DNA from: Promethearchaeia archaeon
GTDB taxonomy: Archaea; Asgardarchaeota; Lokiarchaeia; Sigyniarchaeales; SOKP01
Length of the DNA stretch: 64,000 nucleotides
NCBI GenBank assembly: GCA_029856125.1
Contig: JAHQWJ010000120.1
Coordinates: forward strand, 243,170 to 307,169
Direction of reading: 5' to 3'
Below the pieces are notes generated by a model that saw nothing but the letters and a program-made list of their open reading frames with translations, had not been told where the DNA came from and ran no database searches. This document shows, one piece after another, positions 5,457 through 23,196 of the stretch (position 1 is its first letter; every line of letters begins with the position of its first letter). A program made the position numbers and the translations under genes.

Positions 5457-6455
5457 ATGAATTTTAAAAATCCTGTTTTAACAAGAGCACCAACAAGAAT
5501 CTGCGACATTGGAGGATGGACAGACACTTGGTTTTACCCAAAAGGAGCTGTATTTAGTTTTTGTGTGGATCTCTATAGCTATGTAAGACTTGTAGAAAAT
5601 TCAAGTAAGACGATAAAAATTTTTGCTGAGAATCTTAAACAAAGCGCTGTAATTCTAAATTTAAAAAAAATTGAATACAATGGTGTTTTGGATTTGTTAA
5701 AAGCAGCGATTAAAAGAATGAATATAGAAAATGGTTTGGATATTTTTGTGAGAGCAGACGCACCACCGGGATGTGGGACAGGTACTAGTGCGAGCGTTGC
5801 GGTTACTTTAATTTCTGCCTTAGCCACCTATAAACGATTAAATATGGATCAAAACAATATTGCTACTTTAGCACATAAACTCGAAACTGAAGAACTTGAA
5901 CTTGAAAGTGGAGTTCAAGATCAGTATGCTGCCGCTTATGGAGGGATAAATTTCATGGAAATTGATTATCCTGAAGTAAAACTATTAAAAATAAAGATTA
6001 ATAAGAAGCGTATTCTTGAACTTGAAAAGCAGTTTATCTTAGTCTATTTTGGTTCAAGAAGTTCGAGTAAAATGCATGATGCAGTTATAAGTAATTATAA
6101 AAATCGAGATAAGGCTACGCTCAATTCTTTTGAAATCATGAAACAGTGTGCATATGAAATGAAAGCCTCAATTAACTCTGACATTGAAATCCTTGGAGAG
6201 ATTATAAATAGAAATTGGGATGCTCAGAAATCTCTCCATCACTTAATGATTAATCCTATAATAAAGAAAGCAGAAAAAATTGCTAAGAGTAATGGTGCTA
6301 TAGGATTTAAGTGCAATGGTGCAGGTGGAGGTGGTTCAGCTACCATTTTAGCTGAAAGTGGATACGAATATCAGATCAAAAAAAAATTAGTTGAAAACGG
6401 TTATACAATCTTGCCATGTAAAATGAGTTTTACTGGCGTTAGAAGTTATGACTAG
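5457..6455 (+). CDS. GHMP-family sugar kinase (HddA / heptose-7-phosphate kinase-like)
   Basis: RAPTRICDIGGWTD, PPGCGTGTS, GVQDQY, KCNGAGGGG motifs. Confidence 0.85.
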   Translation: MNFKNPVLTRAPTRICDIGGWTDTWFYPKGAVFSFCVDLYSYVRLVENSSKTIKIFAENLKQSAVILNLKKIEYNGVLDLLKAAIKRMNIENGLDIFVRADAPPGCGTGTSASVAVTLISALATYKRLNMDQNNIATLAHKLETEELELESGVQDQYAAAYGGINFMEIDYPEVKLLKIKINKKRILELEKQFILVYFGSRSSSKMHDAVISNYKNRDKATLNSFEIMKQCAYEMKASINSDIEILGEIINRNWDAQKSLHHLMINPIIKKAEKIAKSNGAIGFKCNGAGGGGSATILAESGYEYQIKKKLVENGYTILPCKMSFTGVRSYD

Positions 6456-6538
6456 CTTGGCCTTATTGAATGACGATACTAATTCTAATCGAATCTACTA
6501 CGGTTTATCTTTAATTTATATTGGAGAAGATGCTTTTT

Positions 6539-6785
6539 TTCATCGAGTAGGAATTATATTATCTTTATGGGAATAAAAAGAGTTATTCATGGCGTATTGA
6601 TTTGCTTCTTGTATACTTTCGTAGAAAATATCTAGTTTATCTTTTTCCAAATCGTTATAGGAATATTAACCAATTGAGCCATACAATTTTTTAATGAGAT
6701 ATTCCGGCTTATTAAGGTTATAAGTAAGTTCAGCAAGAATATCACTCAATTCTAAAATAATATCTTCATCTATCATTACTTTCAT
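6539..6785 (-). pseudogene. probable gene relic with an internal TAA
   Basis: ATG 6785 lies just past the stop of the upstream gene; reads MKVMIDEDIILELSDILAELTY...YGSIG*YSYNDLEKDKLDIFYESIQEANQYAM... Confidence 0.35.
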
Positions 6786-6790
6786 CTTTT

Positions 6791-7573
6791 TTATTCAATT
6801 AAACCGTGACTTCGTGCTATTTCTTCAAACATCATCAAAGTGCGATACATTTCCCCAGGAACTGCATCCATTAAATTCGCTTGAATTAAATTTGCACGGA
6901 ATTTAGGATATAAATGGTTCAAATTCCCAAAACCCATTGTATCGTCCATTAAACCAGCTAATGAAAATACTTCAATAAGATTATGAATTGTATCTATGTT
7001 GGTATTAGTATTTATATTATTTATCTCATGAGCAACACTCGCGATATCAATTGAAGCTAATGTTTCACGTTTTCTCTTTTGCATTTCAAATTCTTTTGTC
7101 ATTCTTTGGGGAGGAAATAATGTAAAGCTATGGAGCATTTCTTCAAACATTGGAGATATTTCGTTAAAATTAACTTTATCAGCAAAGAAATAGAGAGCAT
7201 ATGATCTTTGTTCATGCAATATGTAATTTAACTGAATAATAACATCATAAGGTGGTTGAAATCCTTTAACCTTTAGAGTATAGCTCAATTTTTCTTTAAA
7301 GTCAATTTTGTGTATTTCCTCAATGATTTCAAAATTTTTCAAATATAAACGCAAGTTTCCAATTGCTTCTTTTATATAGTTCTTATATTTCTTGGGTTTT
7401 CCACGATAAGGATTAACTAAAGGCATTAACATTTCATTAAAGCGTTCACTATTTTCTTCGTATATCGCCATAATAAGAGGGCTTGGATTTCTAGGATCTT
7501 CCTGTACTATCCAACTACTAGGATATTTAATTTCAAAACCGTTCTTAGGATCACTATAAATTAGAAATTTCAT
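6791..7573 (-). CDS. PsbP/DcrB-like domain protein with a helical C-terminal extension
   Basis: YSDPKNGFEIKYPSSW start and FEEMLHSF end are typical of the PsbP-like fold. Confidence 0.6.
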   Translation of the reverse strand: MKFLIYSDPKNGFEIKYPSSWIVQEDPRNPSPLIMAIYEENSERFNEMLMPLVNPYRGKPKKYKNYIKEAIGNLRLYLKNFEIIEEIHKIDFKEKLSYTLKVKGFQPPYDVIIQLNYILHEQRSYALYFFADKVNFNEISPMFEEMLHSFTLFPPQRMTKEFEMQKRKRETLASIDIASVAHEINNINTNTNIDTIHNLIEVFSLAGLMDDTMGFGNLNHLYPKFRANLIQANLMDAVPGEMYRTLMMFEEIARSHGLIE

Positions 7574-7664
7574 AATTTCTCAGAATATTTGTCTTGATAA
7601 TTTTTATGGGGAGTAATTATTTAAATATTTAATTGGAATTAATAAATAATATATATGACAAAAA

Positions 7665-9668
7665 TTGAAATTCATAATGAAAGATTTTGAATTTAAGAAT
7701 ATCCCATCGAATAATAAAGATCCAATAAATTTGGATGAGCTTGGAGAAATCTCTGAGCATTTTCTCCATCAAAATGAAGACGCTATAAATTTAACCGTTC
7801 CTGAAATATTAACTCCAATTAAAAGGGGCTTAAAGAGGTATTATCACCCTCCAAGAAGTTTTGGACATACAGCAGGTATAAATTGTTTAGATATCAGTTC
7901 AAATGGCAAATACCTAGTAAGTGGATCAAATGACACTACGGTAAAGTTATGGGATTTTAAACGTGGATGTCATTTACTTACATTTAATGGACATCAAAGT
8001 TCTATTTACTCTGTATTATTTATAGATAGCTTAAATATTATTTTGAGTGGTTCTGGAGATTCTGCAATAAAAATTTGGAACTTAAATTCGGGGAACTTAA
8101 TAGATTCAATTTATACTTCAAATAATGGTTTTATTCAATCATTAAAATTTTCGAAGAGAACTGGCCATATAATCGTGGGATTACATAATGAGCGTGATTA
8201 TCGTGGGTGGACCGAAGTATGGGATTTAAAAAGAAGGAAATTAGAAAATGTAATCGAACCAGATTTTGAAGCATCACGGGCTTTTACACCTACATCTGAT
8301 TATAAATATTTAATTGGAGTTTCAAATTATGGATCAGATTTAGTAATTTTAGACTTTAAATCTGGTCATCCTGTAAATGTTTTGAAAAATTTAATTGAAC
8401 CACCTAAATATGAAGGAGGAGAAAAGGATTTTATTAGTGATTTCGTAGTATCTCATGATTGTAAATACATCTTTATCTCAACTTACTCCAATCTATTAAA
8501 AAAAATAGATATTTTATCAGGAGAAATTCTTAATTCAGTTCAGATTCGTGGGTTGAGAAACCTGAAAATTCTCCCGCCTGGTAAGTTATTAGCTGAAGTT
8601 CGTTCTGAGTTACAAATACGAGATATTAATTCTCTGGAAATAATTAATAGAATAGAGAATCCACATAAAAAAGGAATGAATTATTTGATATTCACGCCAG
8701 ATATTAAATATCTAATCTCTGCTGGGACACAGATTATAGTAACTGAGCTATCAAGTGGAAATGTAGTTAATCAATTTGGAAAAGGTTCTTTTATGAGCGA
8801 TACTGAACTTGTTAGGGATGATAAAGTAATCAGTATTGTTGACGATATACTTCTATATTGGGATATAAATGATGGAAATGTAATTAAAAAAGTTCCTACT
8901 AAACCTAAAACAATTGAACCTCATACCTCAACAAATGGTAAATATTTCTCTACATATGTTGACACCTCCTCTTTCTCAGGAGCAGATATCTGGGAAATCG
9001 ACAAATTAGAATGCATACACAACATTAAAGATTATTATATAATGGATTTCAATGATAAAGGTACACTATGTGCATGTAATCCAAGCATAAGTCTCTCATC
9101 ATATAGTTGGAGTAAGCAACAAAAAAAAGGATTAATTTCAATATTAGAAATCCCTTCAGGTAAAATCAAATTTTCAGTAAAAGTTCATGACGATAGTATT
9201 AAAGATATTAAGTTTTCTCCAAAAAAGAAATTGATTGCCAGTACTTCTTATGATAAAACAATAAAAATATGGGATTATCAGACTGGCAAAATTATTCACA
9301 ATATTAAGGATTATAGGGATGTAAGGAAATTATTCTTTTCCCCTGATGGTAAATATCTAGTTGGAGGAGACAGAAATGGAAATTTTACATTCTGGGAAAT
9401 ATCCAATGGGAAGGAATTTAAGCAGATAAGTGGTCGGGGAGATAATGCTAAATACTTGTGTTTCTCCCATGATGGTAAATTTATTGCTTTTAGCAGATCT
9501 AAAAATAGCGTAATTGTTAAGAATTTTAAAGAGGATATATCTTATGGCCCATTCAACCATTTTTCTGGAATCTATAAAATTGCATTTTCAAAAAATGATG
9601 AGTTTTTAATTACTATCACTCATAATGGAAATCTTTATTTATGGGATTTTTTACATCTCTTAAATTGA
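7665..9668 (+). CDS. WD40-repeat protein (probably a double beta-propeller)
   Basis: GH...LVSGSNDTTVKLWD, SGSGDSAIKIWN, STSYDKTIKIWD repeats. Confidence 0.9.
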   Translation: MKFIMKDFEFKNIPSNNKDPINLDELGEISEHFLHQNEDAINLTVPEILTPIKRGLKRYYHPPRSFGHTAGINCLDISSNGKYLVSGSNDTTVKLWDFKRGCHLLTFNGHQSSIYSVLFIDSLNIILSGSGDSAIKIWNLNSGNLIDSIYTSNNGFIQSLKFSKRTGHIIVGLHNERDYRGWTEVWDLKRRKLENVIEPDFEASRAFTPTSDYKYLIGVSNYGSDLVILDFKSGHPVNVLKNLIEPPKYEGGEKDFISDFVVSHDCKYIFISTYSNLLKKIDILSGEILNSVQIRGLRNLKILPPGKLLAEVRSELQIRDINSLEIINRIENPHKKGMNYLIFTPDIKYLISAGTQIIVTELSSGNVVNQFGKGSFMSDTELVRDDKVISIVDDILLYWDINDGNVIKKVPTKPKTIEPHTSTNGKYFSTYVDTSSFSGADIWEIDKLECIHNIKDYYIMDFNDKGTLCACNPSISLSSYSWSKQQKKGLISILEIPSGKIKFSVKVHDDSIKDIKFSPKKKLIASTSYDKTIKIWDYQTGKIIHNIKDYRDVRKLFFSPDGKYLVGGDRNGNFTFWEISNGKEFKQISGRGDNAKYLCFSHDGKFIAFSRSKNSVIVKNFKEDISYGPFNHFSGIYKIAFSKNDEFLITITHNGNLYLWDFLHLLN

Positions 9669-9837
9669 AAAATTATGATATTAATTTTTCTTAAAAAATA
9701 TATTAGTACATCGCTATTTAGGCAGAATGTTAATATTATTTTTCCTTAGGATTATATACCTATCAAAAATACTTATTAGATGAAAGATTTTTTTTTTTGA
9801 ATGTAAAATTCCAATGAATTTTTATTCGAAGGATAAA

Positions 9838-12800
9838 TTAAGCTTGGTATGCTTTTGCTGTGTCTCTTATGTAAACTCTAAAAACTTTTGTTTCTTTGTC
9901 GTAAAACACTGCGTCAATGTAGAGATCTTTGAAGTAAACGCTCCATATATGGTTTTGGTTTTTCGATTCAAAGTGTTCTCGATACAATGTTTTGTATCTT
10001 TCGTGTATCGATTGAAATAAATTCATTCGAGTAAACCCGCCTTGCTTTTTGAGAATAATTTCTTGTTGATTATCCCTTGGGAATGATGGTCGTAAGCGGA
10101 TTTCTTCGTCTTCGATAATCATTTCGCTTGGATTTACCAATTCGTTACGCCTTTTTTCTTGAGAATAATATGCAACCCGTAAGAGTCCGCCTTTAACGAG
10201 TTGAAATTCTATTTTATGTTGAATCTGAGCGATTAATTCTAAAATGCGACGGTTAAATGTTTTATGGTTAAATGATTTTGTGAGACCGTCAATAACGGCC
10301 CCTCTCTGAACTGGTGGTAACTTTCTCACTTTTTCTGCGAATATTCTTCGCAGTTCCTCGTCAAAATATTCGTACAGAATGTAGCAAGGTATGAGTTGAT
10401 GGTCGAAATATTTCATAAGCGTCTCGTGTCCTAAATAATTAAGTAGGTTATTCAGAAATGGCGAATTATCTCGAGTCATCATCTCTTTAAACTCTTCTAA
10501 CGGTAATAACTTGTAAAAATTGTACATTAGAAGCGGAAAAACTGTCACTATAGACGGAAACTCGAATAACTCTTTTACCTGACGCTTCATCGTTGCTTTA
10601 TATCTATCTCCCTCCAAGCTTAGCTGTTCAAGGAACCCAAAAAGTTCTTTAAGAACTGCTAAATGATTGTAACATGTTTCCCCTTCAAGTGTAATATCGT
10701 GACGGAGGTCGAATATTTCTTTTAAAAGCGAACGATCCTCGTTTAGAAGTTGTTCTGAAAACTCATCTCTACTAACTAAGTTTAACTCTTCAAGTAGGGC
10801 ATCAAAATCTGTTTTTAAATAATTCTTTTCTCGAGCGTCAACATGCGTAGTAAGTCTTTTTACTATTATAGGTTCGTATTTCTTTCCGAATTGATGCAAA
10901 AACCCGTTGCCAATTAAATACACGACAACATTCTCGATGTCGTTGTCCATCCACACCTCTAATAGCGTTTTTTTCTGTTCCCTTGTTAAATACCTAAGGT
11001 ATCTTTTTTTGAGCAAAAATTTAATCGTGCGCTCAGAGAACGTTTGAAACCTTTTCATAATCGCTAGTTGAAGTGATGCTATCGAATGGTCTATCGGCAA
11101 CTCTTCTGCATGGGGATATAATCCATTACAACTCTGCGTAAATAATTCTTTACCACTCGGTGTAAATTGCTCTTCAACGAAACGAGTGACGGAATTGATT
11201 ATATCGCTCCTTTTGGATAAATTACTATCGCTTAACATTGCCGTCAAGTTAGGTAAAAATTCCGAATCTGTATCTTTACACAATTTTTCGTAATCTACAC
11301 CCTCTAAAAATTGTGTGAAGCCGTATCGCACGAGTAATATGAAAATGTTGAAGGTAGTGAAATCGAACATATCATATAAAATCTTGCTTATCTCTCGATT
11401 TAAAGCGAACTTCAATAATTCGTAAAATTCTTTGATTTCTAATTCAATTTCGCAGTTTAAGCCTGCAACGATATTCTCCCAGGAAAATTGGGGCAACTTA
11501 AAAAAATCGCGGATTAACGCTTTTGGATTGTTGTGCGCTTTCTCTTCTAAGTCTTTTAACGAATAAACTTCCACTTTAGGGAAACCGTTGGAAAAAACTT
11601 GGTAATCATATCTTTTAAGCACGCTTTTTACTTCCAATCCGTTCTTGTCGATTTGTTCCGGTTTTTTTTTCATATAATCCCAAATATACGCGTGACCGTT
11701 GAGATCTACGACCATTAAAAGCTTATCGTTATTAATAAATCCAATTTGGGAAATTTTAGCTAAGTGCGTAAACGGTCCAAAAACAACTCCTTTTGCAAAG
11801 TTCCAGATAAACGCTTCCTTCCCGCCACCGCTTGCAAAATACTCGCCCATTGGGGTAAAGGCAAATTGGCTAAAATTACCAGCCTTTACTCGTAATTTTC
11901 TTATCTCTTTTCCATCTTCTGCGTCCCAGAAGGTAATATTAGGCGGTCCACGCCACGAAGAACCTCCAACAAGTACTTTACCGTCGGGAGAGAATGCTAA
12001 CGGTCGACCCTTTGAGTAGCTTTCGATGATAAGCGTTATTTCTCCGGTGCGATAATTCCATATTTTGACGGTTCTGTCGTACGAACTACTGGCTACGCGT
12101 ACGTTATCGGGAGAGAACGCAATTCCGCTTACGTAATCAGAATGGATTTTTACCGACGAGAGAACTTTTTTAGAAGGTAGCTCGATTACAACTATTACTC
12201 CCTTATCTTTTTCCTCTCTGGTGGAAGAAAAAGAATAAATTTTCCAAGGAGTTCCAGCCAGTAAATTTCCGGCTTCGTTAAAGCAATGAATGGAGAAATC
12301 TGAAATTTCGGTAACAAGCGTAAACGAAGTTAAATCCCATAGTTGATGTGAGGCTCTGTAGGAGCTAACAATTCCCGTAGTAAAGTAATCGCCTTTTGCA
12401 GAAGTGTAAAGACTACGCGACTCCGATTTTACCAACCAGTGCTTAATTACATCGCCTGTGAGAACATCCCAATAAAAAATTTCGTCGTTTACGAGCGTTA
12501 CCGCGAAATTACCTTTTACTTTGTTTGTAGAACAACGCGTCTTTAACCCCCCTAGCGACCCGAGGTATTTTTTTCCTCGGTAATCCCACTCACTAATTTG
12601 AGTATTCATTCCACAAAAAAGGCGTTTCATATCGGGTGTTAAGACGATATCGCGAATATAACCGCGATACTCTCCTGGTGCTGGACCAATCAACCTTTCT
12701 TCAAGCTCTAACGAATACGGATTTAAGATTGCCACGTTATACCCCTGAGCAATTGCTAACTTGCCGTTGCGAAGTACTTTCGTCCAAAATCTCCCGCCTA

Positions 12801-15339
12801 TCTCCTTAGAAAACATAATCTTCCCGGTTCGAGAGTCAATTTTTTTGGTAATTCCTTGTTCTGAACGGGTTATAAAATACTTTTTATCAGGCGTCAATTT
12901 TAGATCTGTAAGATAGTCGGACTCTCTGTATTCGTTTGGCTCATCTACTATTCCGGTGAAAACTTGGAGGACTTGTCCGGTGTTAATGTCAACAATCCCT
13001 ATATCGTCAAATTCTAAGATTCCTGCGATTTTTTCGTCTGGCAATAAGCACAACGAGCCATAATGATCGAACCCAGTTTCAATACTTTTTACGAGTTTTC
13101 CGGTTTTTAATTCCCACACCTCAACCCAATCTGGGTATTCGGAATTACCTTCTGACAATTCAGTGATAAGCAATCCGTTGGAAGTGATAAGCGCTTGGAA
13201 GCAGTGTACGATACCATCATCTTTTTTAGGCGTTTGGAACTGGTGTAGCTGTTTTCCCGTAGCAAGATCCCAAATCCGTATCGTGCTGTCCCACGCACTA
13301 CTTATGATTAAATTCTCGTAAAATGATATGCTGCTCACGGCTCCTGTGTGTCCTTTCATCGTTCTCACAAAACTATTCTCGTGGAGATCCCATAGTTTAA
13401 TGTCGTTGCAACCACTTGCGAGATATCGCCCGTCGGGGCTCACCGCTAGCGATTGTACGGGACTAATGTGCCCAAAATCGAGAGACGGCCAGAACATTTT
13501 TATTAATCCTGTTTCTTCTGGGAGCAATTCTTCGGGAAGAGTAAAGTTAATTCGGTCTTTTTCTTGGCTTGTGAATTTTTTATATGTATACATGAGAACT
13601 TCGTCTTCTAATTGTGGAGACTTTAATGCCATCGCTTTTATCTCCTTTCGAGCGCTCAAGTGCGTATCCTTACTGTGTGTATTCTCACTTTGTGTACTCT
13701 TACTTTTAGTATCCATTTTGAACAAGTCGTCTAGACTTCTCCCGCACGAAGAACAAGTAGAAGGTCGGTCAACGGTCTCTACCTTACAGAAGGGACAGGT
13801 GAAAGAGGCGCTCCAGTAAGTAGTTTTCAGCACCTCTAATTCCCTTCTTACTCGGGCGATGGCGTTTGCAGTTCCGACCTCGGGCAATTCTTTCAGTTCT
13901 TTTAGTTCTTTTACTTTTTGCGATATATCAAGCGCAAGGCCGGCGCGCTCCATGTCCAGCAACATCGCGTAAGTGGGAGATTGGTTAGCCCAAGCCATTT
14001 CGTTTTCTGGATTTAATTGCACCGCATCTTTGAAGTACTCAATCCCTTTCTTAAAGTTCCACACCTCGCCTTCAATGTATGCTAACCCGAGTAAATTTAG
14101 CGCGTCTGAGGTTAAAAATGGATCGTTGCTTAACGATACTACTTTTTTCAAACACCGTCGTTGATGCATGTATTTACCATAATCTTTATACGCCATCGCA
14201 AGCGCAAACCACGATTCGGAGTCGTCGGGCATAAGGAACAACACTTTTTTCAGTAGCGGGATAGCATAGAAGTATTTACCGATTCCACTACTAAAAAACG
14301 CAAAATCTCTCAAGAAAGGCAACTTTAAGTCGTTTTTTTCGTAATAATCAATAATGAGATTATCCCGTTTGACGAATTCTCGAGATATATGATACGCTTC
14401 TGCTAACCGTAGTTTCGCGATTGGTATTTTAGGATTAATTTCGAGAGCTTTTTCCAAATAAAGTATGGTTTTCTCAATATGATTTTGATTGAACATCGCT
14501 ATCCCTAGCCCTACCCAATAAAACGCTTTCTGCGGAACGATTTCCGTCAGAATTTTCATGTATCGGAGTGCTTCTTGAGGTTTCCCCCGCTCGTTAAGGT
14601 CTCGCACACGCGCGATTAACAGTTCTTCGTTGTCAGGGAATTGTTCCATCGCCTTCTGGAAACATTCATCCGATTGTTCGTCGCCTTTAAAAGCGCGGAG
14701 CATTTTCGCTTTGGTTTTCCATTCGTTTACGGTCTTTGCTCTGAAATTCGCAATGTATTGTATAAAAGCTTCAAGTAATTGAGGTTGTGGGTTTGCCCCC
14801 GACGACTTTAGGTCTTGAATGTTAACAGTTTTAAAGCGATCAAAAAACTTTAACGATTCAAATTGCTCAGGAGTAAGGTAGAAAAGATACCCGCCAAGTA
14901 ATAGACTCATCATTACGGGCAAGTATTCAGAATCGAACCTGCGAGCGATTTCTTCCGAAAAAACATTTTTTGCGAGTGGATCGCCAGCGTCGCAAAGCTT
15001 ACGAAGTAACGGAAAGGAGATGTTTGAATGGAGCAAACCGGTGTTGTAATCGTTTTCATACCAGACTTGGAGGTTAGAACAGTGCCCCCAGAACTCTACT
15101 TCCGGAGGAATAAGCGGAACCGTTTCCGGAAGTAACAGCGATTCGTATTCCATCGATTTGTCTAAGTTATCGGATATTTCATCGATCGAGAGTAGATTTT
15201 CTATTCTCGTCATTTTTTCGATTGGAACGTTTAAAAGTAAGTATTTACAGTTTATAAAACGCTCACCGTTTACGTATATCATGGTTTCGTTTCGTTCCAG
15301 CTTAAGGGTTAAGAAATCGTTTACTTTAAAGGTGTGCAC
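9838..15339 (-). CDS. multidomain protein: Lokiarchaeia-type N-terminal domain + TPRs + Zn ribbon + WD40 propellers + helical C-terminal region
   Basis: FKVNDFLTLKL...CKYLLLNVP...EFWGHCSNLQVW...LHSNISFPLL N-domain; TPRs at about aa 205-470; CPFC...CSSC; WD40 repeats at about aa 620-1225. Confidence 0.85.
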   Translation of the reverse strand: MHTFKVNDFLTLKLERNETMIYVNGERFINCKYLLLNVPIEKMTRIENLLSIDEISDNLDKSMEYESLLLPETVPLIPPEVEFWGHCSNLQVWYENDYNTGLLHSNISFPLLRKLCDAGDPLAKNVFSEEIARRFDSEYLPVMMSLLLGGYLFYLTPEQFESLKFFDRFKTVNIQDLKSSGANPQPQLLEAFIQYIANFRAKTVNEWKTKAKMLRAFKGDEQSDECFQKAMEQFPDNEELLIARVRDLNERGKPQEALRYMKILTEIVPQKAFYWVGLGIAMFNQNHIEKTILYLEKALEINPKIPIAKLRLAEAYHISREFVKRDNLIIDYYEKNDLKLPFLRDFAFFSSGIGKYFYAIPLLKKVLFLMPDDSESWFALAMAYKDYGKYMHQRRCLKKVVSLSNDPFLTSDALNLLGLAYIEGEVWNFKKGIEYFKDAVQLNPENEMAWANQSPTYAMLLDMERAGLALDISQKVKELKELKELPEVGTANAIARVRRELEVLKTTYWSASFTCPFCKVETVDRPSTCSSCGRSLDDLFKMDTKSKSTQSENTHSKDTHLSARKEIKAMALKSPQLEDEVLMYTYKKFTSQEKDRINFTLPEELLPEETGLIKMFWPSLDFGHISPVQSLAVSPDGRYLASGCNDIKLWDLHENSFVRTMKGHTGAVSSISFYENLIISSAWDSTIRIWDLATGKQLHQFQTPKKDDGIVHCFQALITSNGLLITELSEGNSEYPDWVEVWELKTGKLVKSIETGFDHYGSLCLLPDEKIAGILEFDDIGIVDINTGQVLQVFTGIVDEPNEYRESDYLTDLKLTPDKKYFITRSEQGITKKIDSRTGKIMFSKEIGGRFWTKVLRNGKLAIAQGYNVAILNPYSLELEERLIGPAPGEYRGYIRDIVLTPDMKRLFCGMNTQISEWDYRGKKYLGSLGGLKTRCSTNKVKGNFAVTLVNDEIFYWDVLTGDVIKHWLVKSESRSLYTSAKGDYFTTGIVSSYRASHQLWDLTSFTLVTEISDFSIHCFNEAGNLLAGTPWKIYSFSSTREEKDKGVIVVIELPSKKVLSSVKIHSDYVSGIAFSPDNVRVASSSYDRTVKIWNYRTGEITLIIESYSKGRPLAFSPDGKVLVGGSSWRGPPNITFWDAEDGKEIRKLRVKAGNFSQFAFTPMGEYFASGGGKEAFIWNFAKGVVFGPFTHLAKISQIGFINNDKLLMVVDLNGHAYIWDYMKKKPEQIDKNGLEVKSVLKRYDYQVFSNGFPKVEVYSLKDLEEKAHNNPKALIRDFFKLPQFSWENIVAGLNCEIELEIKEFYELLKFALNREISKILYDMFDFTTFNIFILLVRYGFTQFLEGVDYEKLCKDTDSEFLPNLTAMLSDSNLSKRSDIINSVTRFVEEQFTPSGKELFTQSCNGLYPHAEELPIDHSIASLQLAIMKRFQTFSERTIKFLLKKRYLRYLTREQKKTLLEVWMDNDIENVVVYLIGNGFLHQFGKKYEPIIVKRLTTHVDAREKNYLKTDFDALLEELNLVSRDEFSEQLLNEDRSLLKEIFDLRHDITLEGETCYNHLAVLKELFGFLEQLSLEGDRYKATMKRQVKELFEFPSIVTVFPLLMYNFYKLLPLEEFKEMMTRDNSPFLNNLLNYLGHETLMKYFDHQLIPCYILYEYFDEELRRIFAEKVRKLPPVQRGAVIDGLTKSFNHKTFNRRILELIAQIQHKIEFQLVKGGLLRVAYYSQEKRRNELVNPSEMIIEDEEIRLRPSFPRDNQQEIILKKQGGFTRMNLFQSIHERYKTLYREHFESKNQNHIWSVYFKDLYIDAVFYDKETKVFRVYIRDTAKAYQA

Positions 15340-15487
15340 ACTGTTTACCTGTTTTTATTGTAATTGTTTGCGTACTTTATTTTTGTCTACTATGTATTAT
15401 TTGAATTACTTTATAAAAATATGCTACTTCACAATTTTCTAATTTGTAACTGAGCTTTCAAGGAGGAATAACAAAATTTGTAATTTT

Positions 15488-15733
15488 TTAAGCATTAAAG
15501 TTCAAATAAACGATTTTTACTATTAGCACAAAATCTATTCTGATTTGCTTTTCACAAAGAATCTTTGTCTTATGACAAAGTTTGCAGAAGGGATGGTAAA
15601 TAGGCTGTATATCTCGTTCATTGCAAGCCAAGCAAATACTGGTTTCCCTATAACGCTTAATATCAATAAATACCTAATAAGAATATTTTTCAGGATCTAG
15701 TTGTTCAATATCGATGGATTCAAAATCAACCAT
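15488..15733 (-). pseudogene. small Zn-finger ORF interrupted by an in-frame TAG
   Basis: Own translation: MVDFESIDIEQLDPEKYSY*VFIDIKRYRETSICLACNERDIQPIYHPFCKLCHKTKILCEK...FNA*; AGGATGA RBS-like motif 7 nt upstream. Confidence 0.5.
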
Positions 15734-15801
15734 TTTAAAATCATCCTATTTAGTCAACATAACTAAAAATATTAGTAGATTCAATAAATAAAAATAAGAT
15801 C

Positions 15802-16434
15802 TTATTTAGGTTTATAATTGAGGGTAATTTCTGTTAAAAATGACAGGACTTCTCGGTTAACATCTTTTTTCGAAGAATTTTCTTTTTTAAAAGCCTTGTA
15901 TTCTTCCCTCGTAACTTTTTTTCTTGACATTTTTTTCTTCATTATACTATCGTTAGCCATTAATTCAATCTTTTGATTTCTTAAGTAAAAGAAGTATTCT
16001 TCAGCGACTATCCTGATTCTCCTTAAACTTTTTTCGTAGCCCTCTAATTGACTTTTATAATAATTGAAAGTAATCAAACGAGTATTGATGTCTATTTCCT
16101 TTCTTTTGAATGACTTATTCAATTCAGATATGTAATTTTTTATATTTTGGATTTGAGAATTGATTTCAAAGAAATTGTATGGCTCCCTGATTTGGGGATT
16201 GACTTTTTTAAGTTTCAGTTTTACTTCATTAGACATAAATTTTAACGCTTTAAACTGCGTGGAAGCTTCCTCTTCAGTGCTTCGCTTAACCCTTTTTTTC
16301 AGTTCCTTTAACTTTATCTTAATCTCATTTTGCTGCTTTTTTAGTTTGTATAACTCGAACAATAAATCGAGCTGGTTAAAATACTCTTCATCTGACAATA
16401 TTTCTGTGCTTGGAAAGGTTTTATTCTCAATCAT
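15802..16434 (-). CDS. Lys/Glu-rich coiled-coil hypothetical protein
   Basis: 210-aa charged helical ORF; AGGTGA RBS upstream. Confidence 0.7.
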   Translation of the reverse strand: MIENKTFPSTEILSDEEYFNQLDLLFELYKLKKQQNEIKIKLKELKKRVKRSTEEEASTQFKALKFMSNEVKLKLKKVNPQIREPYNFFEINSQIQNIKNYISELNKSFKRKEIDINTRLITFNYYKSQLEGYEKSLRRIRIVAEEYFFYLRNQKIELMANDSIMKKKMSRKKVTREEYKAFKKENSSKKDVNREVLSFLTEITLNYKPK

Positions 16435-16512
16435 AAAATCACCTACTTTTTTTCTTAATAAATTTGATGTAATTTCAGCTTATTTAAATAAAAAAAATAA
16501 AAATTTTGATGT

Positions 16513-19500
16513 TTAATCCTCCTCACTACTAAAAATATCGTTAAAAGGATTACCTTTGCCTTTATTTCCAGTATTTTTGATCTCTAATTCCACTTTCATT
16601 GGTGAATGTTTTCTTTTCCGCCTGAAAATGGCACTAATAATCCTAAAAACAATATATCCTAATACACCATAAAACACAAATGGAATTAAAAGACTTATTA
16701 TGAACACAAGAATTGTGTTTGGAGTTGGAGGATTATCGGGATCAGGTGTCGGCTCAGGGTCAGGTATGGGTTCTTCTGAAGAACTAATCGTGTGTTGGTA
16801 GAGCGATATTCCATTGGGGTGGTATTCATCGATAAGAACAATATCAAAGTAATATTTAAAATCCTTATCAGGTTCGAAATATAACGTAAAACGAGAATGG
16901 TCAAAATTATCGACTCTATCAAACAGTTGAGAATCAAAATATATATCGTTTTTGTAAATTTTTGTTTGAACTCTAGAGTTTTCAGCTGGATTGAGCCCCG
17001 ACGCAAATTCGTACGAGACATTAAATTCAAAGTTTACAGAATTGTTGTTAGTTGTAACTTTCAGACCGTTACTATGAAAATTGTAAGATGTCAGAAAACT
17101 TATAGAACACTGTCCTATTTCCTTTATGTAATCGTAAACACGAATAATTCCTTCGACTTTAGGGTAATTTAATGCCCTTTCTGGAACAAGAAAATTCACA
17201 TAATAGTTAGACTCTGTCTGTTTTTCAAGGTTTAAAACGCCTAGTTGAGGACTTTCAAAAAAAATTGATACTTGGTTTCCAAAATCCGTTAAAATTATGT
17301 TCCTAAAGGAAGCTGTAATGCTATTTACTTGCCCTAATAAAATTTCTTGATTATACTCACAATTAACTTGTAGATCGTCATTAAGAGCCATATCAACCAC
17401 TCGGAAGAAATTTGCCTGCTCGATTCGGGAAGTATTAGGATCGGAATAATATTCGTTGAACTCACTGGAGTATAGATCCTGAACAAGAGCGTTTGTATAA
17501 GAATAATTAAACACGATTTGGAGATCTAGGATTTCTGATAGCTTATAATGATAATAGAGAATTTTTAAGCTTGATGTATCAATGTTTTGGTAAATAAAAT
17601 TCCTTATTTTTTGACTGTTTAAATCGAATAATCCAAGTTCTTTTAGTAAATACGCCATATAGTAGGTATTTTCTGTCAATGACTCAATATCAGAACAATA
17701 CTGAGGGTTAAAATGGATAACTGTGTCGGATTCGTATACATTACTTTTAACATACTGATAGAGAGCTGTTTTGTTAAATGAAAGTGATTCTATATCTCCT
17801 AAATCTAGGTGATCAGCAAGGAGATTTAGTAATTTAATCGCGTAAAAACTGTTTTCAAAAGTGATATATCCTGTTTGGTATTGTTGAGGTATTGAAGTAG
17901 GAAAAGGAAGGAATGCTCCGTGAAATTCGTTCCCAATTGATTGAAATTGAGAATTTAATACGGCGTTAAGCTCTTCACGTAAATCGTATAGGACCCCAAG
18001 GTCGTTTAATTTAAAAATTCTTTTTAGGCTATTTAGTGTCATATAGGTGGTTTTGTGACTTCTTAAGAAATTTAGGTTATTTGTTTCGTTCAAATTGCCA
18101 TATTTATAGTATTCTATAGGGTAGGATCTGAATCCAATAATATTTTGATCCATACCAGTACTCGCATATATTAGAATGTGTCCTCTTAAAGGATTGAATA
18201 TACAAGCTTGTTTTATAAGTTCGTACAACCCTGATATATCTAATTCGCCAATTCTTCCTTTTTGATAAAATGAATTCACTACAGAGTTAATTGTTTCCAT
18301 AGACATATAATCGGCAGAAAGGAGCGAATAACCTCGTTCTTGTTTGTAAAAAGATAGTGAATTCGCTATTTCTTCCTTTTCTTGTTCGGTTAACTGTGAA
18401 ATTTCACCAATTTCTTTTAAACTTCGGACTATTTGGAAGGTGTCAATTAATTCATGATATTTGTACACCGTGGAACGATCCCAATTACCCAAAGTGTTTC
18501 TGTTGTTCATTACGAATTGAAGGGTTTCAGATCGACTAAAATTGGAAAACCCTGTAATATCTGACATTTCAAGCCCTATAGGTGTCGCAACTATATCTAA
18601 AGCGTTGGAGATATCGTTCACTTGAAACTTAAACTCCTGTTCGTCGTAGATCACATTGAGAAATGTGTGAAATTCGTGTGTTCTCACAGTATCAACTAAA
18701 TTTAGCATCTGTAAACTCTTTACAGCGTAATAGGAGGATATAAGATTCGGTTCGAATAATGGTGAGCCAAGAGTATCTAAGGTGAGATCGTTATCGTTAA
18801 GAAAGCTCCCAAAAAACCAATCGTATCCGTTGATAGTTTGCAATGAATTAATAAATGGCACTAATCTGTTTAGATAAAAACCATAACCCGCCCAGTCATC
18901 GATAAAGAGATTTAAAGTACTCAATGCAAAATAAGTGTTATCCAATGTAGCAACCTTAAATTCACTCACTAATCCGTCATCATAAGGTTGTCCTATAAAA
19001 CCATTCTCTTCTCCTTCAGGATTAAAACAATTCCAGATAAAATTAATATTTTCTTGTGGATCTACTAAATCCAATCTATTTAAAATATCTAAAGATAAGA
19101 CCGCATAACAATGGATTTCGAGCATTGAGCTTAAAGGATAATACATCTGAGGGAAGTTCATGTTTAGATACCGATGCGTATTCTTGTCTATAAATATGTG
19201 TAAATCCTCAGAATAGTGATCCAAGATGTAATCTATTATTTTGGTCTGATTTATATTACCTAACTTTCCGAGTGCTTCAAGAATATAAAGCCCATAGTAT
19301 GTTGCCTGTAAAGAAGGCTCATAAATCTGTGGAAAATATCCGAGATTGTCGTAATCGTTGATTTTTCTTCCGAAAATTGCTTCAATGTCATCTCCATTGT
19401 CATTAGACGAGGTATTTGGGATTATTTTTCTTATATCATCAGCATTTACCTCAATATATCCTCGCTCGATAGTATCAAACTTATTCTCAATCAATGAAAA

Positions 19501-19626
19501 GTGGGGTATCGAAAAGGTACCAATGAAAAAAACTACTATAATAATTGTTTTTACTATTTTTTGTGTAATTTTTAAATCGCTTCCTATGGGTGTAATTATT
19601 AATTTAGAAATACAATTCACCCTCAT
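16513..19626 (-). CDS. membrane-anchored surface protein with prenyltransferase/squalene-oxidase-like alpha-barrel repeats
   Basis: N-terminal hydrophobic segment; repeats PSLQATYYGLYILEALG, ATLDNTYFALSTL, PNLISSYYAVKSL, FENSFYAIKLL; PEPTPDPDNPPTP linker, then TM and basic tail. Confidence 0.7.
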   Translation of the reverse strand: MRVNCISKLIITPIGSDLKITQKIVKTIIIVVFFIGTFSIPHFSLIENKFDTIERGYIEVNADDIRKIIPNTSSNDNGDDIEAIFGRKINDYDNLGYFPQIYEPSLQATYYGLYILEALGKLGNINQTKIIDYILDHYSEDLHIFIDKNTHRYLNMNFPQMYYPLSSMLEIHCYAVLSLDILNRLDLVDPQENINFIWNCFNPEGEENGFIGQPYDDGLVSEFKVATLDNTYFALSTLNLFIDDWAGYGFYLNRLVPFINSLQTINGYDWFFGSFLNDNDLTLDTLGSPLFEPNLISSYYAVKSLQMLNLVDTVRTHEFHTFLNVIYDEQEFKFQVNDISNALDIVATPIGLEMSDITGFSNFSRSETLQFVMNNRNTLGNWDRSTVYKYHELIDTFQIVRSLKEIGEISQLTEQEKEEIANSLSFYKQERGYSLLSADYMSMETINSVVNSFYQKGRIGELDISGLYELIKQACIFNPLRGHILIYASTGMDQNIIGFRSYPIEYYKYGNLNETNNLNFLRSHKTTYMTLNSLKRIFKLNDLGVLYDLREELNAVLNSQFQSIGNEFHGAFLPFPTSIPQQYQTGYITFENSFYAIKLLNLLADHLDLGDIESLSFNKTALYQYVKSNVYESDTVIHFNPQYCSDIESLTENTYYMAYLLKELGLFDLNSQKIRNFIYQNIDTSSLKILYYHYKLSEILDLQIVFNYSYTNALVQDLYSSEFNEYYSDPNTSRIEQANFFRVVDMALNDDLQVNCEYNQEILLGQVNSITASFRNIILTDFGNQVSIFFESPQLGVLNLEKQTESNYYVNFLVPERALNYPKVEGIIRVYDYIKEIGQCSISFLTSYNFHSNGLKVTTNNNSVNFEFNVSYEFASGLNPAENSRVQTKIYKNDIYFDSQLFDRVDNFDHSRFTLYFEPDKDFKYYFDIVLIDEYHPNGISLYQHTISSSEEPIPDPEPTPDPDNPPTPNTILVFIISLLIPFVFYGVLGYIVFRIISAIFRRKRKHSPMKVELEIKNTGNKGKGNPFNDIFSSEED

Positions 19627-19800
19627 ATTTAAACAAAAAATGTGGATTATTAAAAAATTCCCGAAGTAAACTACCCAAAATCTGTTTTTGCTTCTCTATC
19701 TCATTTTTTCCTTTATAAAGAATAATTAATTAATCCCCAGTAAATCTTGATTTAACACTAAAGTCCGAGATATTATAAGTTTATTTAAAGTGATAAAAGA

Positions 19801-22800
19801 GTGGTTGAAAATAAAATTAGAAAGATTGAAAGAAAGGAAACTTTAGTATGTGAAACATGCAATAATACAATTCCAAAAGAGATTCTTGAAAAAAGTGTAG
19901 AGGGAGTAAAAAATCTCTATTGCCAATATTGTGGTGTGTCATTAAATCTCTTTCCCGATCCAATCGATAATATTGTATCTGGCGAGAGTCCTATTATCTC
20001 CCCTAATACCCAAAAAGAGTCGAACTTGACAAAAATTAAGCAAATTAGCCAAAAAAGCGATTTAACTTTGAGTTACTCAAATATAAGGAACGCTCTACGA
20101 AGTTATATTTATCAGCTGATTTATCAATTGTTAACAAACACTCCTGTAACCCTTAAAAAAATGGAGAATAAAAAAGAATTGAAATCTTCGCATATTAATA
20201 TAATACTCAAAAAACTTTGGAACGAATTAAAAGACTTGAATCGAAATGATTTAGCTAATCAAGAATTGGTAAGCTCAAGACGAAGAATTAGGAATTATTT
20301 TGAAGAATTTCAATCATCGCTGCGACCTTATAAAAAATTTCGAAAGGTTAATTTTGCTCTTTTTGCAGAAAACATCGAATTCGTTTTCGGGTTAATTTTA
20401 GGTGATTACGAATTCTCGAACCTTGCAACCTCTAAAAAACGGATAGTACTCAATTTAAAAAAGAGTTTTGGATTTAAATCAGATACGGCAACAACGAATT
20501 CGTTTACTTACAACATCTCGTTAATCGTTAGTAAAAAGATTCGCAGCATACTTAGTCAATATCACATTACAGAGGGGAACGATAATAAATTAGCATTAGA
20601 TGAAATAATTGGTCATGTTATTGATTATATAGTCACTAATAAGGATAACTTATCTGATTTAAGTGAATTCAACAACTCCAAAAAGAAAAAGTTTCATAAA
20701 ACACTGGAAATATTAATCGCCAATTTAAAAACTGACTGGATTTATCGCAAGAGCTTTGAAGATCACATCTATAGATTAATTATAGTCGTCAATTCCTTAA
20801 TGAGCGATGCTGATTATTCTTCCAACCTTATTGGATTTGAGCGGCTTATCAGCCAAGGATTAACACAATCAGCTCTCTTTGAAAAAGACCAGGATTTCTC
20901 TCCTCATTTTAAACTAAATTTAACTCTGATATTGTGTCGAATTATATACATAAAAATAAAGAATTCCCCTAGTATAACCAAATTAAGCTCTCAACCCGTA
21001 AATTTGAGCATTACGGAAGAAAATGAAATTAGAAATTCAATTTTAGATGAAATTACAGCAGGTAAAAAAATCAACTCTCAATTATTGAAGAAGTTTTATA
21101 AGTTCTCGCTAGAAAAATTTCAAACTTATTATGAAAAATTACAATTAAAATTATCTTCGGATTTGATATATGTGGAGAGCTTTCGTAATTACCTTAGTGA
21201 CCTTGTAAAACTCGTGTTTACTATCGTACATTCAATTTCAAAAAAATCACATCTTACTCAACTCGAACTTGCTGTGGTAAAAGACTTAGCAAACTATAAT
21301 TTTGAATGGTTTTATAAAAAACCAGAGAGGACCTATTTCTATTATTTAAATTCAACTAATCATTCTAATGAAGATGAGAAATCTATTAATCTAACTTTGA
21401 ATAATCAACACCTTGATAATTCCTCGGAAGAAAAGCATGTCAACCGAATTCTTAAACTTGCAAAAGAGCTAGTGGATAAAATGCAGCAACAGCAAAATGA
21501 GAATCTTAAAGAATTAGGATATGACGGGAGCATACCTTTAAAAGAGTTTGTCTTATACGATAAAGATATAGCTAGACTTCTTCAGAAGGGCATTATCAAG
21601 GATATAGACGATTTAATCGGCATTAAGGGAATGCTTCGATATGGCTTCGTAGGTTTTACTTATAGGGCAATCGACAGAAAAACAATGTTCTTTCAAAGTG
21701 GTTTATCGTTCGTCCCCCATCCTAATCGACTTAATTATTATCTTCGTGACTGTGTTTTCAAGCCTAAGAAATACCAATTTAAAAAAACGGGTACTAATCA
21801 AATATATGGTTGGATAGCTAAGGCAATCGATAGAGAATGCGGTTTAGCGTCATTTAGGAAGGAAATTGCTGAAGGAAAAATTGGATCTTTATATAAGGCA
21901 TTAAATAAAATGTTTAAATTTGAGATTACTGGAGTCTTTTGGGGCGAAAAGTCAGTAAGAAATGCTGAGGACGAGCAAATTGCTGTTACTTTATTAAACA
22001 CTGATCGCAAAGGATTAATAAGGTTACTTAGCCGAACGGGTATAGGATACGATATTCTTAATCCTTCCTCTTTAAACATGAAGAAAATAACCGAAATTAG
22101 GCGGAAATACGGAATCTCTAAAAGTATGATTGGAATGGGGTTAAATGATCCATTATCTTCAGGACACGGCGGTTATCCCAAGTATATAAAAAGTTATATT
22201 TGGAGGTGTGGTTATTACACAGCGCTTGGTATGTTACAGACTCAAATGCACGAAGAAATGAAGAAAAATGGTTTTTATAAAAAATCACTTCCAGCCTTTA
22301 GGTGGGAATATGCGAGGTGGTTTGGGAACCTTAAGCAAGGCAGAGAATTGTTCTTCGAACCTATACTTGAAGGTTTAAAGGAATTGTATGGTTATTCCGA
22401 AAGTGACCTTAATAGATTATTCCCACTTGCTAAGAAATTTGATAAAGAGCTGTTCATTCATTTGACTGAAGAGAACTATGAATTACTTGAAATTGCAGAG
22501 AAGATGGGTCACAATGCTGATCATCTAGGAGATCTGGCTAAAGATTTAATTCCTCAAGAATACGATTTTATAGAACAATATAAATTTACAAGTAATAAAA
22601 AGCAGAGGTCGTTTGAAGATTTACAATATTATTTGGTAGCTCAGAAAATATTACGCTATTATTTGGAAGACAAATCAAGAGGTGAAATTATAACGAGTTT
22701 TGATGGTGGAATATCTAATGATAATTTCAGAGAAGTTCTTAAAAGAGTTTTACATACTCAAAAATATTCTGAACTTCGAAATGTTGCTGAAGAACCCCTG

Positions 22801-23154: not shown

Positions 23155-23196
23155 GGAATATAAATATCGCAATATCATTGTTAAATAACAGTTTTC

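Follow-up and report, generated by a model that had tools for sequence, protein, structure and literature searches.

A lineage-specific head domain in an 1833-residue repeat protein of a Loki-type archaeon, and its possible role as a docking module

A long gene with a modular architecture

Within the window that we analyzed (the whole stretch of 64,000 nucleotides), a single open reading frame runs from position 15339 to position 9838 on the minus strand, begins with GTG, and encodes a protein of 1833 amino acids (aa). The initial annotation, which was made from the sequence alone, had placed an N-terminal domain before TPRs, a zinc ribbon, and WD40 propellers. This order is borne out: the N-terminal domain (the head) is followed by TPRs, then by a ribbon of the form CxxC..CxxC and a double WD40 propeller, and then by a helical tail. 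The motifs that were quoted for the head are also all there (CKYLLL, aa 31-36; FWGHCSNLQVW, aa 83-93; LHSNISFPLL, aa 103-112; GDP, aa 119-121; EEIARR, aa 129-134; and GYL, aa 150-152).

The head (aa 1-165; 14845..15339, minus strand) has no Pfam match and was recognized from an AF2 model and from its conservation in 154 copies. It is followed by a linker and a TPR region (aa 166-500; 13840..14844, minus strand), for which the evidence is Pfam's TPR_14 (aa 275-315, E = 7.8e-10) and TPR_2 (E = 9e-9) and the TPR-type models of NCBIfam (aa 205-460). Next are the motif CPFC-x10-CSSC (aa 515-532) and a polar linker (together aa 501-588; 13576..13839, minus strand). All four cysteines of the motif are kept in an orthologue from another source (P0152) and in a 36%-identical homologue from another genome (G327), and, judging from its sequence, the motif is zinc-ribbon-like and a putative metal site.

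The double WD40 propeller, with a lead-in segment, spans aa 589-1270 (11530..13575, minus strand). The WD40 family of Pfam (PF00400) matches it with E = 3.4e-30, and propeller models from Pfam match at about aa 623-842 and aa 1045-1268. An adjoining and convergent gene on the plus strand (7665..9668) encodes a standalone double WD40 protein of 667 aa. BLASTP aligns this protein to the propeller module along the full length of the module (E = 6e-105, 32% identity, 643 columns), and the next-best match to the module in this genome has an E value of 2e-17. By these alignments, the neighboring gene is the closest paralogue of the module in its own genome.

Beyond the propellers is a middle helical stretch without a family (aa 1271-1422; 11074..11529, minus strand), part of which (aa 1313-1407) weakly resembles aa 289-383 of a 540-aa protein (E = 0.017). 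The helical tail module (aa 1423-1714; 10198..11073, minus strand) starts with a partial copy of the head (aa 1427-1461), and the last part of the protein, about 119 aa long, is an alpha/beta domain (aa 1715-1833; 9841..10197, minus strand; AF2 pLDDT 76.2). This C-terminal domain is rare (10 of 301 genomes of the phylum), and elsewhere it is also found as a standalone small ORF. Fold comparisons of these 119 aa gave weak, beta-grasp-like hits (best Z = 4.8, to 7a1i_C, with an rmsd of 3.0 over 71 aligned residues). The best E value from Foldseek was 0.54, and a sequence profile against the PDB gave nothing below E = 0.33. No Pfam family matched the C-terminal third above the cut-off; HEPN_Swt1 had a weak match (E = 0.008) under the Pfam cut-off and was dismissed. 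Overall, the 1833-aa protein has no recognizable enzyme domain.

The gene is intact

A long fused gene could be an artefact of assembly or gene calling, or a decaying pseudogene, and two features would suit such an explanation: the odd architecture, with a partial duplicate of the head inside, and the finding of the full architecture in just two clusters in a large protein search. The explanation is already contradicted by the 1833 codons in a single open frame, by the orthologue P0152, which is 89% identical with no gaps along the gene, by the collinear, 36%-identical cassette in the other genome, and by identical contigs from four runs of four studies, which cover the gene without any difference and run across both domain junctions. 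None of the 22 runs listed is an RNA run. The gene is intact and real rather than an assembly chimera, and an artefact or a pseudogene is barely conceivable. The comparison with P0152 also shows that the head (93.9% identity) and the helical tail (95.9%) are better conserved than the TPR (83.6%) and WD40 (86.8%) parts.

The GC content of the gene is 0.398 (versus 0.327 for the genome). We had considered horizontal transfer because of this raised GC content, but the gene ranks just 57th among 1585 long ORFs, so the argument is not decisive and was dropped.

The head domain

The initial annotation stated that the head has no known function, and our searches agree. Residues 1-170 matched no Pfam family at E <= 10, the relatives are named "hypothetical protein," and the nearest protein atlas clusters are archaeal hypothetical proteins without names. 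Sequence and fold searches with the head or the tail gave no match to an enzyme or to another family. For the head model, Foldseek against the PDB gave no hits at E <= 1e-3, and the best E value from a viral fold library was 0.29. The best Z in the wide VIA fold search was 5.4, for a match limited to aa 104-160, and a second VIA search reached 4.5. Winged-helix proteins of the OmpR/PhoB type recurred for aa 1-125 at noise level (Z = 3.4 for 4ixa_A and 3.1 for 9ket_J, with Foldseek E values of 1.4-4.8). A sequence profile against the PDB (from alignment A4) found LRR chains only, and these were reached through the tails of members of the alignment. We did not find a description of the domain in full-text literature searches or in the passages of papers that we consulted; supplements may list it by orthologous-group number.

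In the AF2 model (pLDDT 84.3, pTM 0.76), the head has a four-stranded beta meander (aa 2-28), the conserved C31, a low-confidence linker with S51-I-D53-E, a helix bearing E82, F83, H86, C87, S88, N89, Q91, and W93, and then the first helical-repeat unit (aa 105-165). Several polar residues are near-invariant among the 154 copies: C31 (153 copies), S88 (153), D53 (152), N89 (152), H86 (150), and C87 (150). The spaced Cys/His residues had suggested a zinc site. C31, H86, and C87 are in keeping with this idea, but H104 is kept in just 108 of the 154 copies and C116 is not conserved (the consensus is T, V, or A). Because three candidate ligands are conserved, not four, the zinc idea is only half supported. 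As a separate observation, the many invariant polar residues would suit an enzyme or a metal site as well as a docking surface, which counts against a docking role.

An unnamed helical repeat begins in the head, whose last 60 residues form its first unit. These residues return in tandem, in units of about 72 aa (seven of them in P0015, for example), and many family members have 2-7 further units of the head type after the head. The motif LL..GYL..L..E, which had been noticed to recur in the C-terminal third, reflects the same unit, as a profile of head positions 105-165 matches aa 1427-1461 with an i-E value of 6.9e-9. The corresponding part of the head model (aa 104-170) gave weak hits to helical-repeat proteins of the HEAT/ARM type (Z = 4.0-5.4). 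No HEAT or ARM family of Pfam was found, and a protein with 11 matched stretches of the repeat (P0002) gave no families.

A lineage-specific family with changing partners

The head domain is present in 2753 cluster representatives at E <= 1e-3 (1648 at E <= 1e-30). In a sample of the phylum, 37 of 40 further genomes from the window's family carried it, as against none of 160 genomes that represent 26 other families; the copy number per genome was 1 to 17 or more. The domain had been described as highly expanded in Loki-type archaea, and these counts confirm the expansion; in this sample the domain is lineage-specific and confined to one Loki-type family. The genome studied here has six ORFs with the head, with fusions to REC, small GTPase, or LRR, and 47 ORFs that are small-GTPase-like.

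We examined partner domains in the best 150 representatives, which are the closest relatives and not a fair sample of all 2753. The most frequent partners were LRR_4 (39), Ras (17), and TPR_2 (16). LRRs are indeed the commonest partner, but at 39 of 150 the claim that the domain is usually found before LRRs goes too far. REC (3) and CDC48_N (2) were rarer partners among the best 80. The GTPase lies upstream of the head in 9 of the 150 representatives and downstream in 8, and 16 of the 150 have TM-like segments. There are also head-only proteins of 150-260 aa, and a GTPase-head protein of 409 aa with nothing after the head. Small GTPases are promiscuous domains, and the link between them and the head rests on such fusions, which is another count against docking.

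In a tree of 154 copies of the domain, the partner labels were scattered. Counting forced changes on well-supported branches, there were at least five for the upstream GTPase, at least five for the downstream GTPase, and at least three for LRR; the labels are crude (regular expressions and phmmer), and fragmentary proteins were scored as "other." The family therefore has the form that the initial annotation had suggested, a constant domain with swappable partners (LRR, TPR, WD40, GTPase, receiver, Cdc48-N, and anchors). It is multi-copy, varies in architecture, and matches no characterized enzyme.

Among 80 loci that contain family genes, 10 had neighboring GTPases (13 ORFs, versus about 4.3 expected at this genome's density), and, since the loci are partly orthologous, these counts are not independent. 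At least 19 of the 80 loci are one conserved syntenic orthologue that adjoins NadA and a MarR-like gene.

Origin by recombination

Alignments to its relatives show that the gene for the 1833-aa protein is a recombinant, built from two members of the family. Collinearity with the 36%-identical homologue in G327, a protein of 1928 aa that ends in TPR and LRR, extends over residues 1-1222. From aa 1423 onward, the tail is 39% identical to aa 123-540 of the 540-aa protein, which consists of a head plus a tail, and residues 1423-1833 derive from a gene of this type. A cassette of head, TPRs, ribbon, and two WD40 propellers was joined to the tail of such a head-plus-tail gene, with the break point inside the head domain of the latter. 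The partial head at aa 1427-1461 is the scar that marks the join. A simple insertion into the 540-aa gene had been considered and was replaced by the two-member fusion once the collinear 1928-aa homologue was found. The gene illustrates the stepwise rebuilding of such scaffolds through recombination between paralogues.

Possible functions of the head

We tentatively propose that the 1833-aa protein is a large soluble scaffold and that the head, carried on shuffled partners, serves as a module for docking or assembly; we see this proposal as the likeliest reading and as quite possible, if somewhat short of probable. The head is the constant part of the family, made up of a small beta sheet, a helix with a near-invariant polar patch (E82, H86, C87, S88, N89, and Q91, to which C31 and S51/D53 also belong), and the first helical-repeat unit. 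Recombination has placed switches or anchors (small GTPase, receiver, Cdc48-N, or membrane helices) to one side of it, and repeats that bind proteins (LRR, TPR, WD40, or its own helical repeat) to the other. The variable repeats, in this case TPRs and a double propeller, would bind their targets, and the head could then tie these targets to a partner or site that the family has in common; in some members the docking might be controlled by the fused GTP or phosphoryl switch. We infer a docking role because of this grammar of architectures and because strongly conserved segments (QCK.LLLNIP and SIDEA) lie where the model has low confidence (aa 31-75, with a mean pLDDT of 53-65). A segment that is modeled with low confidence yet conserved would fit ordering only upon binding. 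A complex prediction for the head with the GTPase domain (residues 1-175) of the C140 paralogue gave no answer (score 0.00, without controls) and speaks neither for nor against binding.

The same conserved residues might instead form the Cys/His center of an enzyme or effector (C87 or C31 with H86 and D53 or E82), which the repeats and switches would aim or gate. The near-invariant polar residues do bunch in two short motifs, and the head-only and GTPase-head proteins would suit an output domain behind a switch. However, the searches matched no enzyme in sequence or fold, H86 and C87 are adjacent within a predicted helix, and the head continues directly into a helical repeat, and we regard a catalytic head as decidedly unlikely. 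This continuity, and the 2-7 units that many members add, would be expected if the head were a mere structural cap, perhaps stabilized by metal, that starts the lineage's helical repeat and has no partner of its own. Cysteine-rich caps flank LRRs, and C31, H86, C87, and H104 (in the 108 copies that have it) could hold a structural zinc. But many members, among them the GTPase-head proteins, the head-only proteins, and the window's protein with its TPRs after the head, have no further such repeat to be capped, and more than 20 near-invariant positions are rare for a simple cap. A cap without a partner is unlikely, albeit a little less so than an enzyme.

The initial annotation also likened the family to innate-immune receptors. 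If these proteins were immune or conflict receptors (NLR- or Roco-like), detection of invaders would fall to the repeats and signaling to the head. The family is multi-copy and lineage-specific with fast domain shuffling, some of its genes form tandem arrays (of three genes in L015 and of two each in L022 and L033), and the window's copy sits in a block that is absent at that place from the nearest genome. On the other hand, PADLOC gave no families for the head or the tail (its sole match, to a piece of the HEAT-ARM_XIII model, came from the WD40 repeats), a Walker A motif is absent from P0001, and the best 25 of 54 Pfam families matched include no STAND NTPase, no NACHT or NB-ARC P-loop NTPase, and no death- or TIR-type effector. 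The head and the C-terminal third are both without a Pfam family, and the NadA/MarR-linked orthologue is conserved and no island gene. These results go against the immune reading, which is very unlikely.

Returning to the docking proposal, Loki-type Asgard archaea have unusually large numbers of small GTPases and of repeat proteins (LRRs and solenoids), whose roles bear on how eukaryotic cell organization arose, and a single unnamed head connects GTPase and receiver switches with many of the scaffolds built of LRRs, TPRs, or WD40 repeats. A bolder version, which seems rather doubtful, is that the head serves a Loki-specific signaling network as its common docking device, through which scaffolds and switches would assemble with each other or on a hub. 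Such a network would have dozens of paralogues, including LRR, TPR, and WD40 scaffolds, membrane-anchored copies, and GTPase or receiver copies, and the head family would supply the layer of effectors or scaffolds that has long been sought for the many small GTPases of Asgard archaea. The head offers a concrete handle, as a single domain to express, solve, and use as bait, and its profile could annotate thousands of "hypothetical" proteins.

Comparison with known systems

The family resembles F-box (FBXL and FBXW) and SOCS-box adaptors in that a short constant domain is combined with interchangeable LRR or WD40 repeats in many paralogues per genome. The F-box is a 45-aa motif of three helices, whereas the head has 165 aa with a beta sheet, and, unlike F-box and SOCS-box domains, the head also occurs in fusions with GTPases, receiver domains, and membrane anchors. 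The suggested link to such adaptors or to ubiquitin was not supported: no F-box or SOCS box was found in aa 1-170 (at E <= 10) or among the best 25 of the 54 Pfam families that match the whole 1833-aa protein, and a ubiquitin-like neighbor is present at 7 of the 80 loci, at least 19 of which are the single orthologue.

Roco proteins (LRR-Roc-COR) and the multidomain GTPases of Asgard archaea are similar in another way, as family members join a Ras- or Roc-like GTPase to repeat scaffolds. Asgard GTPases carry uncharacterized extra domains, and in the part of Tran et al. 2024 (PMC10933270) that we consulted, domains of unknown function are drawn as "?" beside Asgard small GTPases. The 1833-aa protein differs from Roco proteins in having no GTPase; in the family the GTPase may be on either side of the head, and there was no COR domain among the 25 best Pfam families tallied for the relatives.

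The C-terminal half of the head and its tandem copies are helical, as are HEAT/ARM alpha-solenoids, and the best fold hits are pieces of solenoids, but the head-type unit has about 72 aa and no HEAT or ARM match in Pfam. The consulted part of a preprint on Asgard solenoids (bioRxiv 10.64898/2026.10.28.762692) describes a solenoid expansion and LRR proteins "of unknown function" and does not mention the head domain. Finally, by domain order alone, the two propellers followed by a helical C-terminal third can be likened to protocoatomer, but here this order is a recent fusion that is confined to this species group.

The gene and its product

Positions 9838-15339 of the window (minus strand) hold a single open frame of 1833 codons with a GTG start. 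Its product, P0001, contains the parts that the initial annotation had recognized: an unnamed N-terminal domain of about 165 residues (hereafter, the head), TPRs (about aa 205-460, from Pfam), a CPFC-x10-CSSC zinc-ribbon-like motif seen in the sequence (aa 515-532), and two blocks of WD40 repeats, each the size of a propeller (about aa 623-842 and 1045-1268, from Pfam). The sequence motifs quoted in that annotation are all present where it placed them. Pfam has no family for the first 170 residues of P0001 or for the last 550, which form a largely helical tail. A match to HEPN_Swt1 was sub-threshold and was dismissed.

The public gene call (P0118, 1814 aa) begins at an internal ATG (Met20) and so loses the conserved first beta strands (window 15283-15339). 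We consider the GTG, which lies five codons past an upstream stop, to be the better start because it agrees with the family alignment and with an orthologue from a different source (P0152) that is exactly 1833 aa long, is 89% identical to P0001, and aligns to it with zero gaps.

The 1833-codon gene is real. Its DNA was almost complete (share of sampled words at least 0.87) in 8 metagenomic runs from 5 marine sediment or subsurface studies. Also, window 9500-15800 is tiled with zero differences by contigs from 4 runs in 4 studies, and one of these runs lies outside those flagged as possible sources of the window. These contigs span both junctions (head/TPR and WD40/tail).

The head is a large, lineage-restricted family

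A profile built from five head copies of the window's own genome matches, at E ≤ 1e-3, the representatives of 2753 clusters formed at 50% identity, and 1648 of these matches reach E ≤ 1e-30. The head is present in 38 of 201 sampled genomes of the phylum, namely the window's genome and 37 of 40 other genomes of its family, with 1 to at least 17 matches per positive genome. It was not found in any of 160 sampled genomes from 26 other families of the phylum, among them 3 genomes of the sister family in the same order.

We also searched prokaryote genomes, one for each species, for the motif [GA]HCSN[LI]QxW, which gave 595 stretches (580 confirmed). The best 80 all come from contigs of Asgard MAGs that are AT-rich (GC 0.25-0.35), and most of these records are titled Promethearchaeota or Promethearchaeia (several have "Loki" in the name); a few have other submitter labels, and one has a bacterial label. 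A record titled Nanopelagicaceae bacterium (L068) holds an Asgard-type head-LRR gene adjoining NadA, at GC 0.303, and this contig is probably mis-binned or mislabelled.

Short head-domain proteins are named "hypothetical protein" at the source and have no precomputed Pfam domain. Together with the 2753 representatives, this bears out the initial annotation's account of an expanded Loki-type domain with no known function. No description of the head turned up in the literature passages that were searched. Tran et al. 2024 (PMC10933270) draw GTPases of strain MK-D1 beside "various domains of unknown function," and a 2026 preprint (10.64898/2026.10.28.762692) treats Asgard LRR proteins as functionally unresolved. 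As far as these searches reach, the head is an undescribed, lineage-restricted family.

In other genomes, head-domain genes also occur in tandem on one strand: three at L015 (1583-2671, 2983-4011, and 4395-5456) and two each at L022 and L033.

The head has changed partners repeatedly

Six ORFs in the window's genome have the head: the window gene, a receiver-head protein with short repeats, a small GTPase-head fusion, two head-helical-LRR proteins, and one that is cut at a contig end. The receiver-head protein (L001:478-1878, plus strand, contig C40) has a receiver, a Pro-rich linker, the head, and then several short YLNPEEKKQL-type repeats. The GTPase fused to the head (L002:4973-6145, minus strand, contig C140) has deviant nucleotide-binding motifs (GDDSAAKT, DFGGEE, TNVD) and may be weak or dead.

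Among the 150 best of the 2753 representatives, the head is at the N-terminus in 108 and lies internally in 40; two copies occur in seven proteins. The Pfam partners of these 150 include LRR_4 (39), Ras (17), and TPR_2 (16), and WD40 families are absent from the top 25; the fused GTPase precedes the head in 9 and follows it in 8. Response_reg and CDC48_N were found in 3 and 2 of 80 representatives, respectively. A crude hydropathy scan gave TM-like segments in 16 of the 150 (upstream of the head in seven) and zero in P0001. The Cdc48 N-domain occurs both fused to the head and as a neighbour: at L013 and L014 (2398-2955 and neighbours), a gene for the Cdc48 N-domain alone is directly upstream of a head-domain gene, followed by a gene for a 797-aa membrane-like protein.

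On a quick maximum-likelihood tree of 154 head domains, partner labels require 39 changes, as compared to a mean of 47.1 when shuffled, and none of 200 shuffles gave a number that low. The branches with strong support by themselves require at least 5 changes for GTPase-upstream, at least 5 for GTPase-downstream, and at least 3 for LRR. Because the labels are crude, all of these figures are rough, but the tree points clearly to repeated shuffling of partners. The scattered LRR, GTPase, TPR, receiver, and CDC48_N fusions support the earlier proposal of a constant domain with swappable partners. Not every member is volatile, as one syntenic head-LRR orthologue (about 490-510 aa) sits beside a MarR-like gene and NadA at 19 or more of 80 loci. 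Small-GTPase genes flank the head at 10 of 80 loci (13 ORFs versus about 4.3 expected at the density of the window's genome), which is a weak signal because the loci are partly orthologous.

Origin of the window's gene

Residues 1-163 of P0001 match residues 2-159 of a congeneric 540-aa protein (48% identity), and residues 1423-1832 match residues 123-540 of the same protein (39% identity), so its residues 123-159 align twice. A repeat profile found the corresponding partial head copy at aa 1427-1461 of P0001, which accounts for the motif that had been seen to recur in the C-terminal third. A 1928-aa protein from another genome (G327) is collinear with residues 3-1222 of P0001, through the head, TPRs, ribbon, and both propellers (36% identity overall, 64% in the head), and has TPRs and LRRs after the propellers in place of the tail. 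The simplest history would be that a head-TPR-ribbon-double-WD40 cassette was joined to the tail of a head-plus-tail gene, with the breakpoint falling within the head of that second gene.

The propeller module is found as a gene of its own as well as inside larger proteins. A convergent, adjoining gene (7665-9668, plus strand) encodes a 667-aa double WD40 protein that aligns over its full length with the propeller parts of P0001 (32.7%) and of the 1928-aa protein (28.7%), and it is far closer to the P0001 propellers than is any other WD40 ORF in the genome.

The tail is rare, with one relative found in a search of near-length proteins. Taken as the last 550 residues of P0001, it gave matches in 9 of the 61 genomes examined from the family (the window's own among them), mostly via sub-stretches, with long matches in only two other genomes. 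Of 301 genomes of the phylum, 10 gave a match to the final 119-aa domain of the tail, which is sometimes a free ORF of 109-204 aa; its model (pLDDT 76) yielded no more than weak beta-grasp-like rows in fold searches (best Z 4.8). In G327, a 1787-aa WD40-rich protein (L111:2336-7696, minus strand, contig C149) ends in this domain (38% identity), so the domain has joined propellers more than once.

Genomic setting

The nearest genome in the sample (flank genes 84-92% identical; assembly 83% complete) has the GHMP-kinase gene (window 5457-6455) directly adjoining the orthologue of window gene 23325-24131. The window has about 17 kb extra between them (about 6533-23300). Genes 15802-23154 are elsewhere in that genome, beside genes that map to a different contig of the window's genome, and no DNA counterpart of 6533-15788 (the genes for a 260-aa protein, the free WD40 protein, and P0001) was found in that 83%-complete assembly. 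By this one comparison, the P0001 gene sits in a rearranged, strain-variable block. Its GC is 0.398 (0.35-0.45 in 400-base windows across 9800-15400) versus 0.26-0.31 in the flanks. This hints at a foreign origin or a special constraint without settling the matter, because the gene ranks only 57th of 1585 long ORFs in the genome.

Other genes in the window include a LarC-type nickel-insertion gene (1797-3083, minus strand; PF01969) near a NikR-like regulator (4003-4536, plus strand; RHH and NikR C-terminal nickel-binding domains). Another gene (16513-19626, minus strand) encodes 1037 aa that include a prenyltransferase alpha-alpha toroid domain; most genomes of the genus carry 1-3 paralogues of it, with a match in 19 of 20 others.

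Anatomy and likely role of the head

An AlphaFold2 model from a 55-row alignment (pLDDT 84.3, pTM 0.76) shows four strands at aa 2-28, a stretch of low confidence at aa 31-75, and helices at aa 79-95, 105-117, 121-136, and 140-148, then short helices. Near-invariant in 154 copies are N7, C31, S51, D53, E82, F83, H86, C87, S88, N89, Q91, W93, E95, Y98, T100, F109, L112, L115, G119, D120, A123, K128, E130, and R134. H104 is kept in 108 of 154 and C116 is not conserved, so of the spaced Cys/His noted earlier, three candidate ligands appear to be a feature of the family and a classical four-ligand site does not.

Against solved structures, the whole head had no match by Foldseek (best E 1.4), a wide VIA search (best Z 5.4), or a second-look VIA search (best Z 4.5), and the viral library gave nothing at E ≤ 0.001 (best E 0.29). 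The weak fold rows that appear cover aa 104-170, where they match parts of HEAT/ARM-type solenoids. Consistent with this, positions 105-165 recur in many members as tandem units of about 72 aa (seven in P0015), a helical repeat that Pfam does not recognize in family member P0002.

The best-supported inference is that the head would have a docking or assembly role, because the recognizable modules of P0001 are all protein-binding, because family members run from a switch or anchor to the head and then to repeats, and because the head also occurs alone and behind GTPases. In this reading, the head and the helical tail would be constant docking parts, and the TPR and WD40 binding parts would change faster. 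Identity between the two orthologues fits this, for one sequence pair: 93.9% in the head and 95.9% in the helical tail versus 83.6% in the TPRs and 86.8% in the WD40 repeats.

That the head, with its candidate ligands, is a metal-stabilized cap for the helical repeat is unlikely. It is quite improbable that it is a Cys/His enzyme; P0001 has no recognizable enzyme domain. We strongly doubt that the family consists of immune receptors, as P0001 has no P-loop and no defence-system match in its head or tail. The F-box, ubiquitin, or innate-immune analogy was not upheld. The family belongs to a known general kind, shuffled repeat scaffolds. The domain order of the receiver-head protein echoes that of a response regulator, with a switch and then an output.
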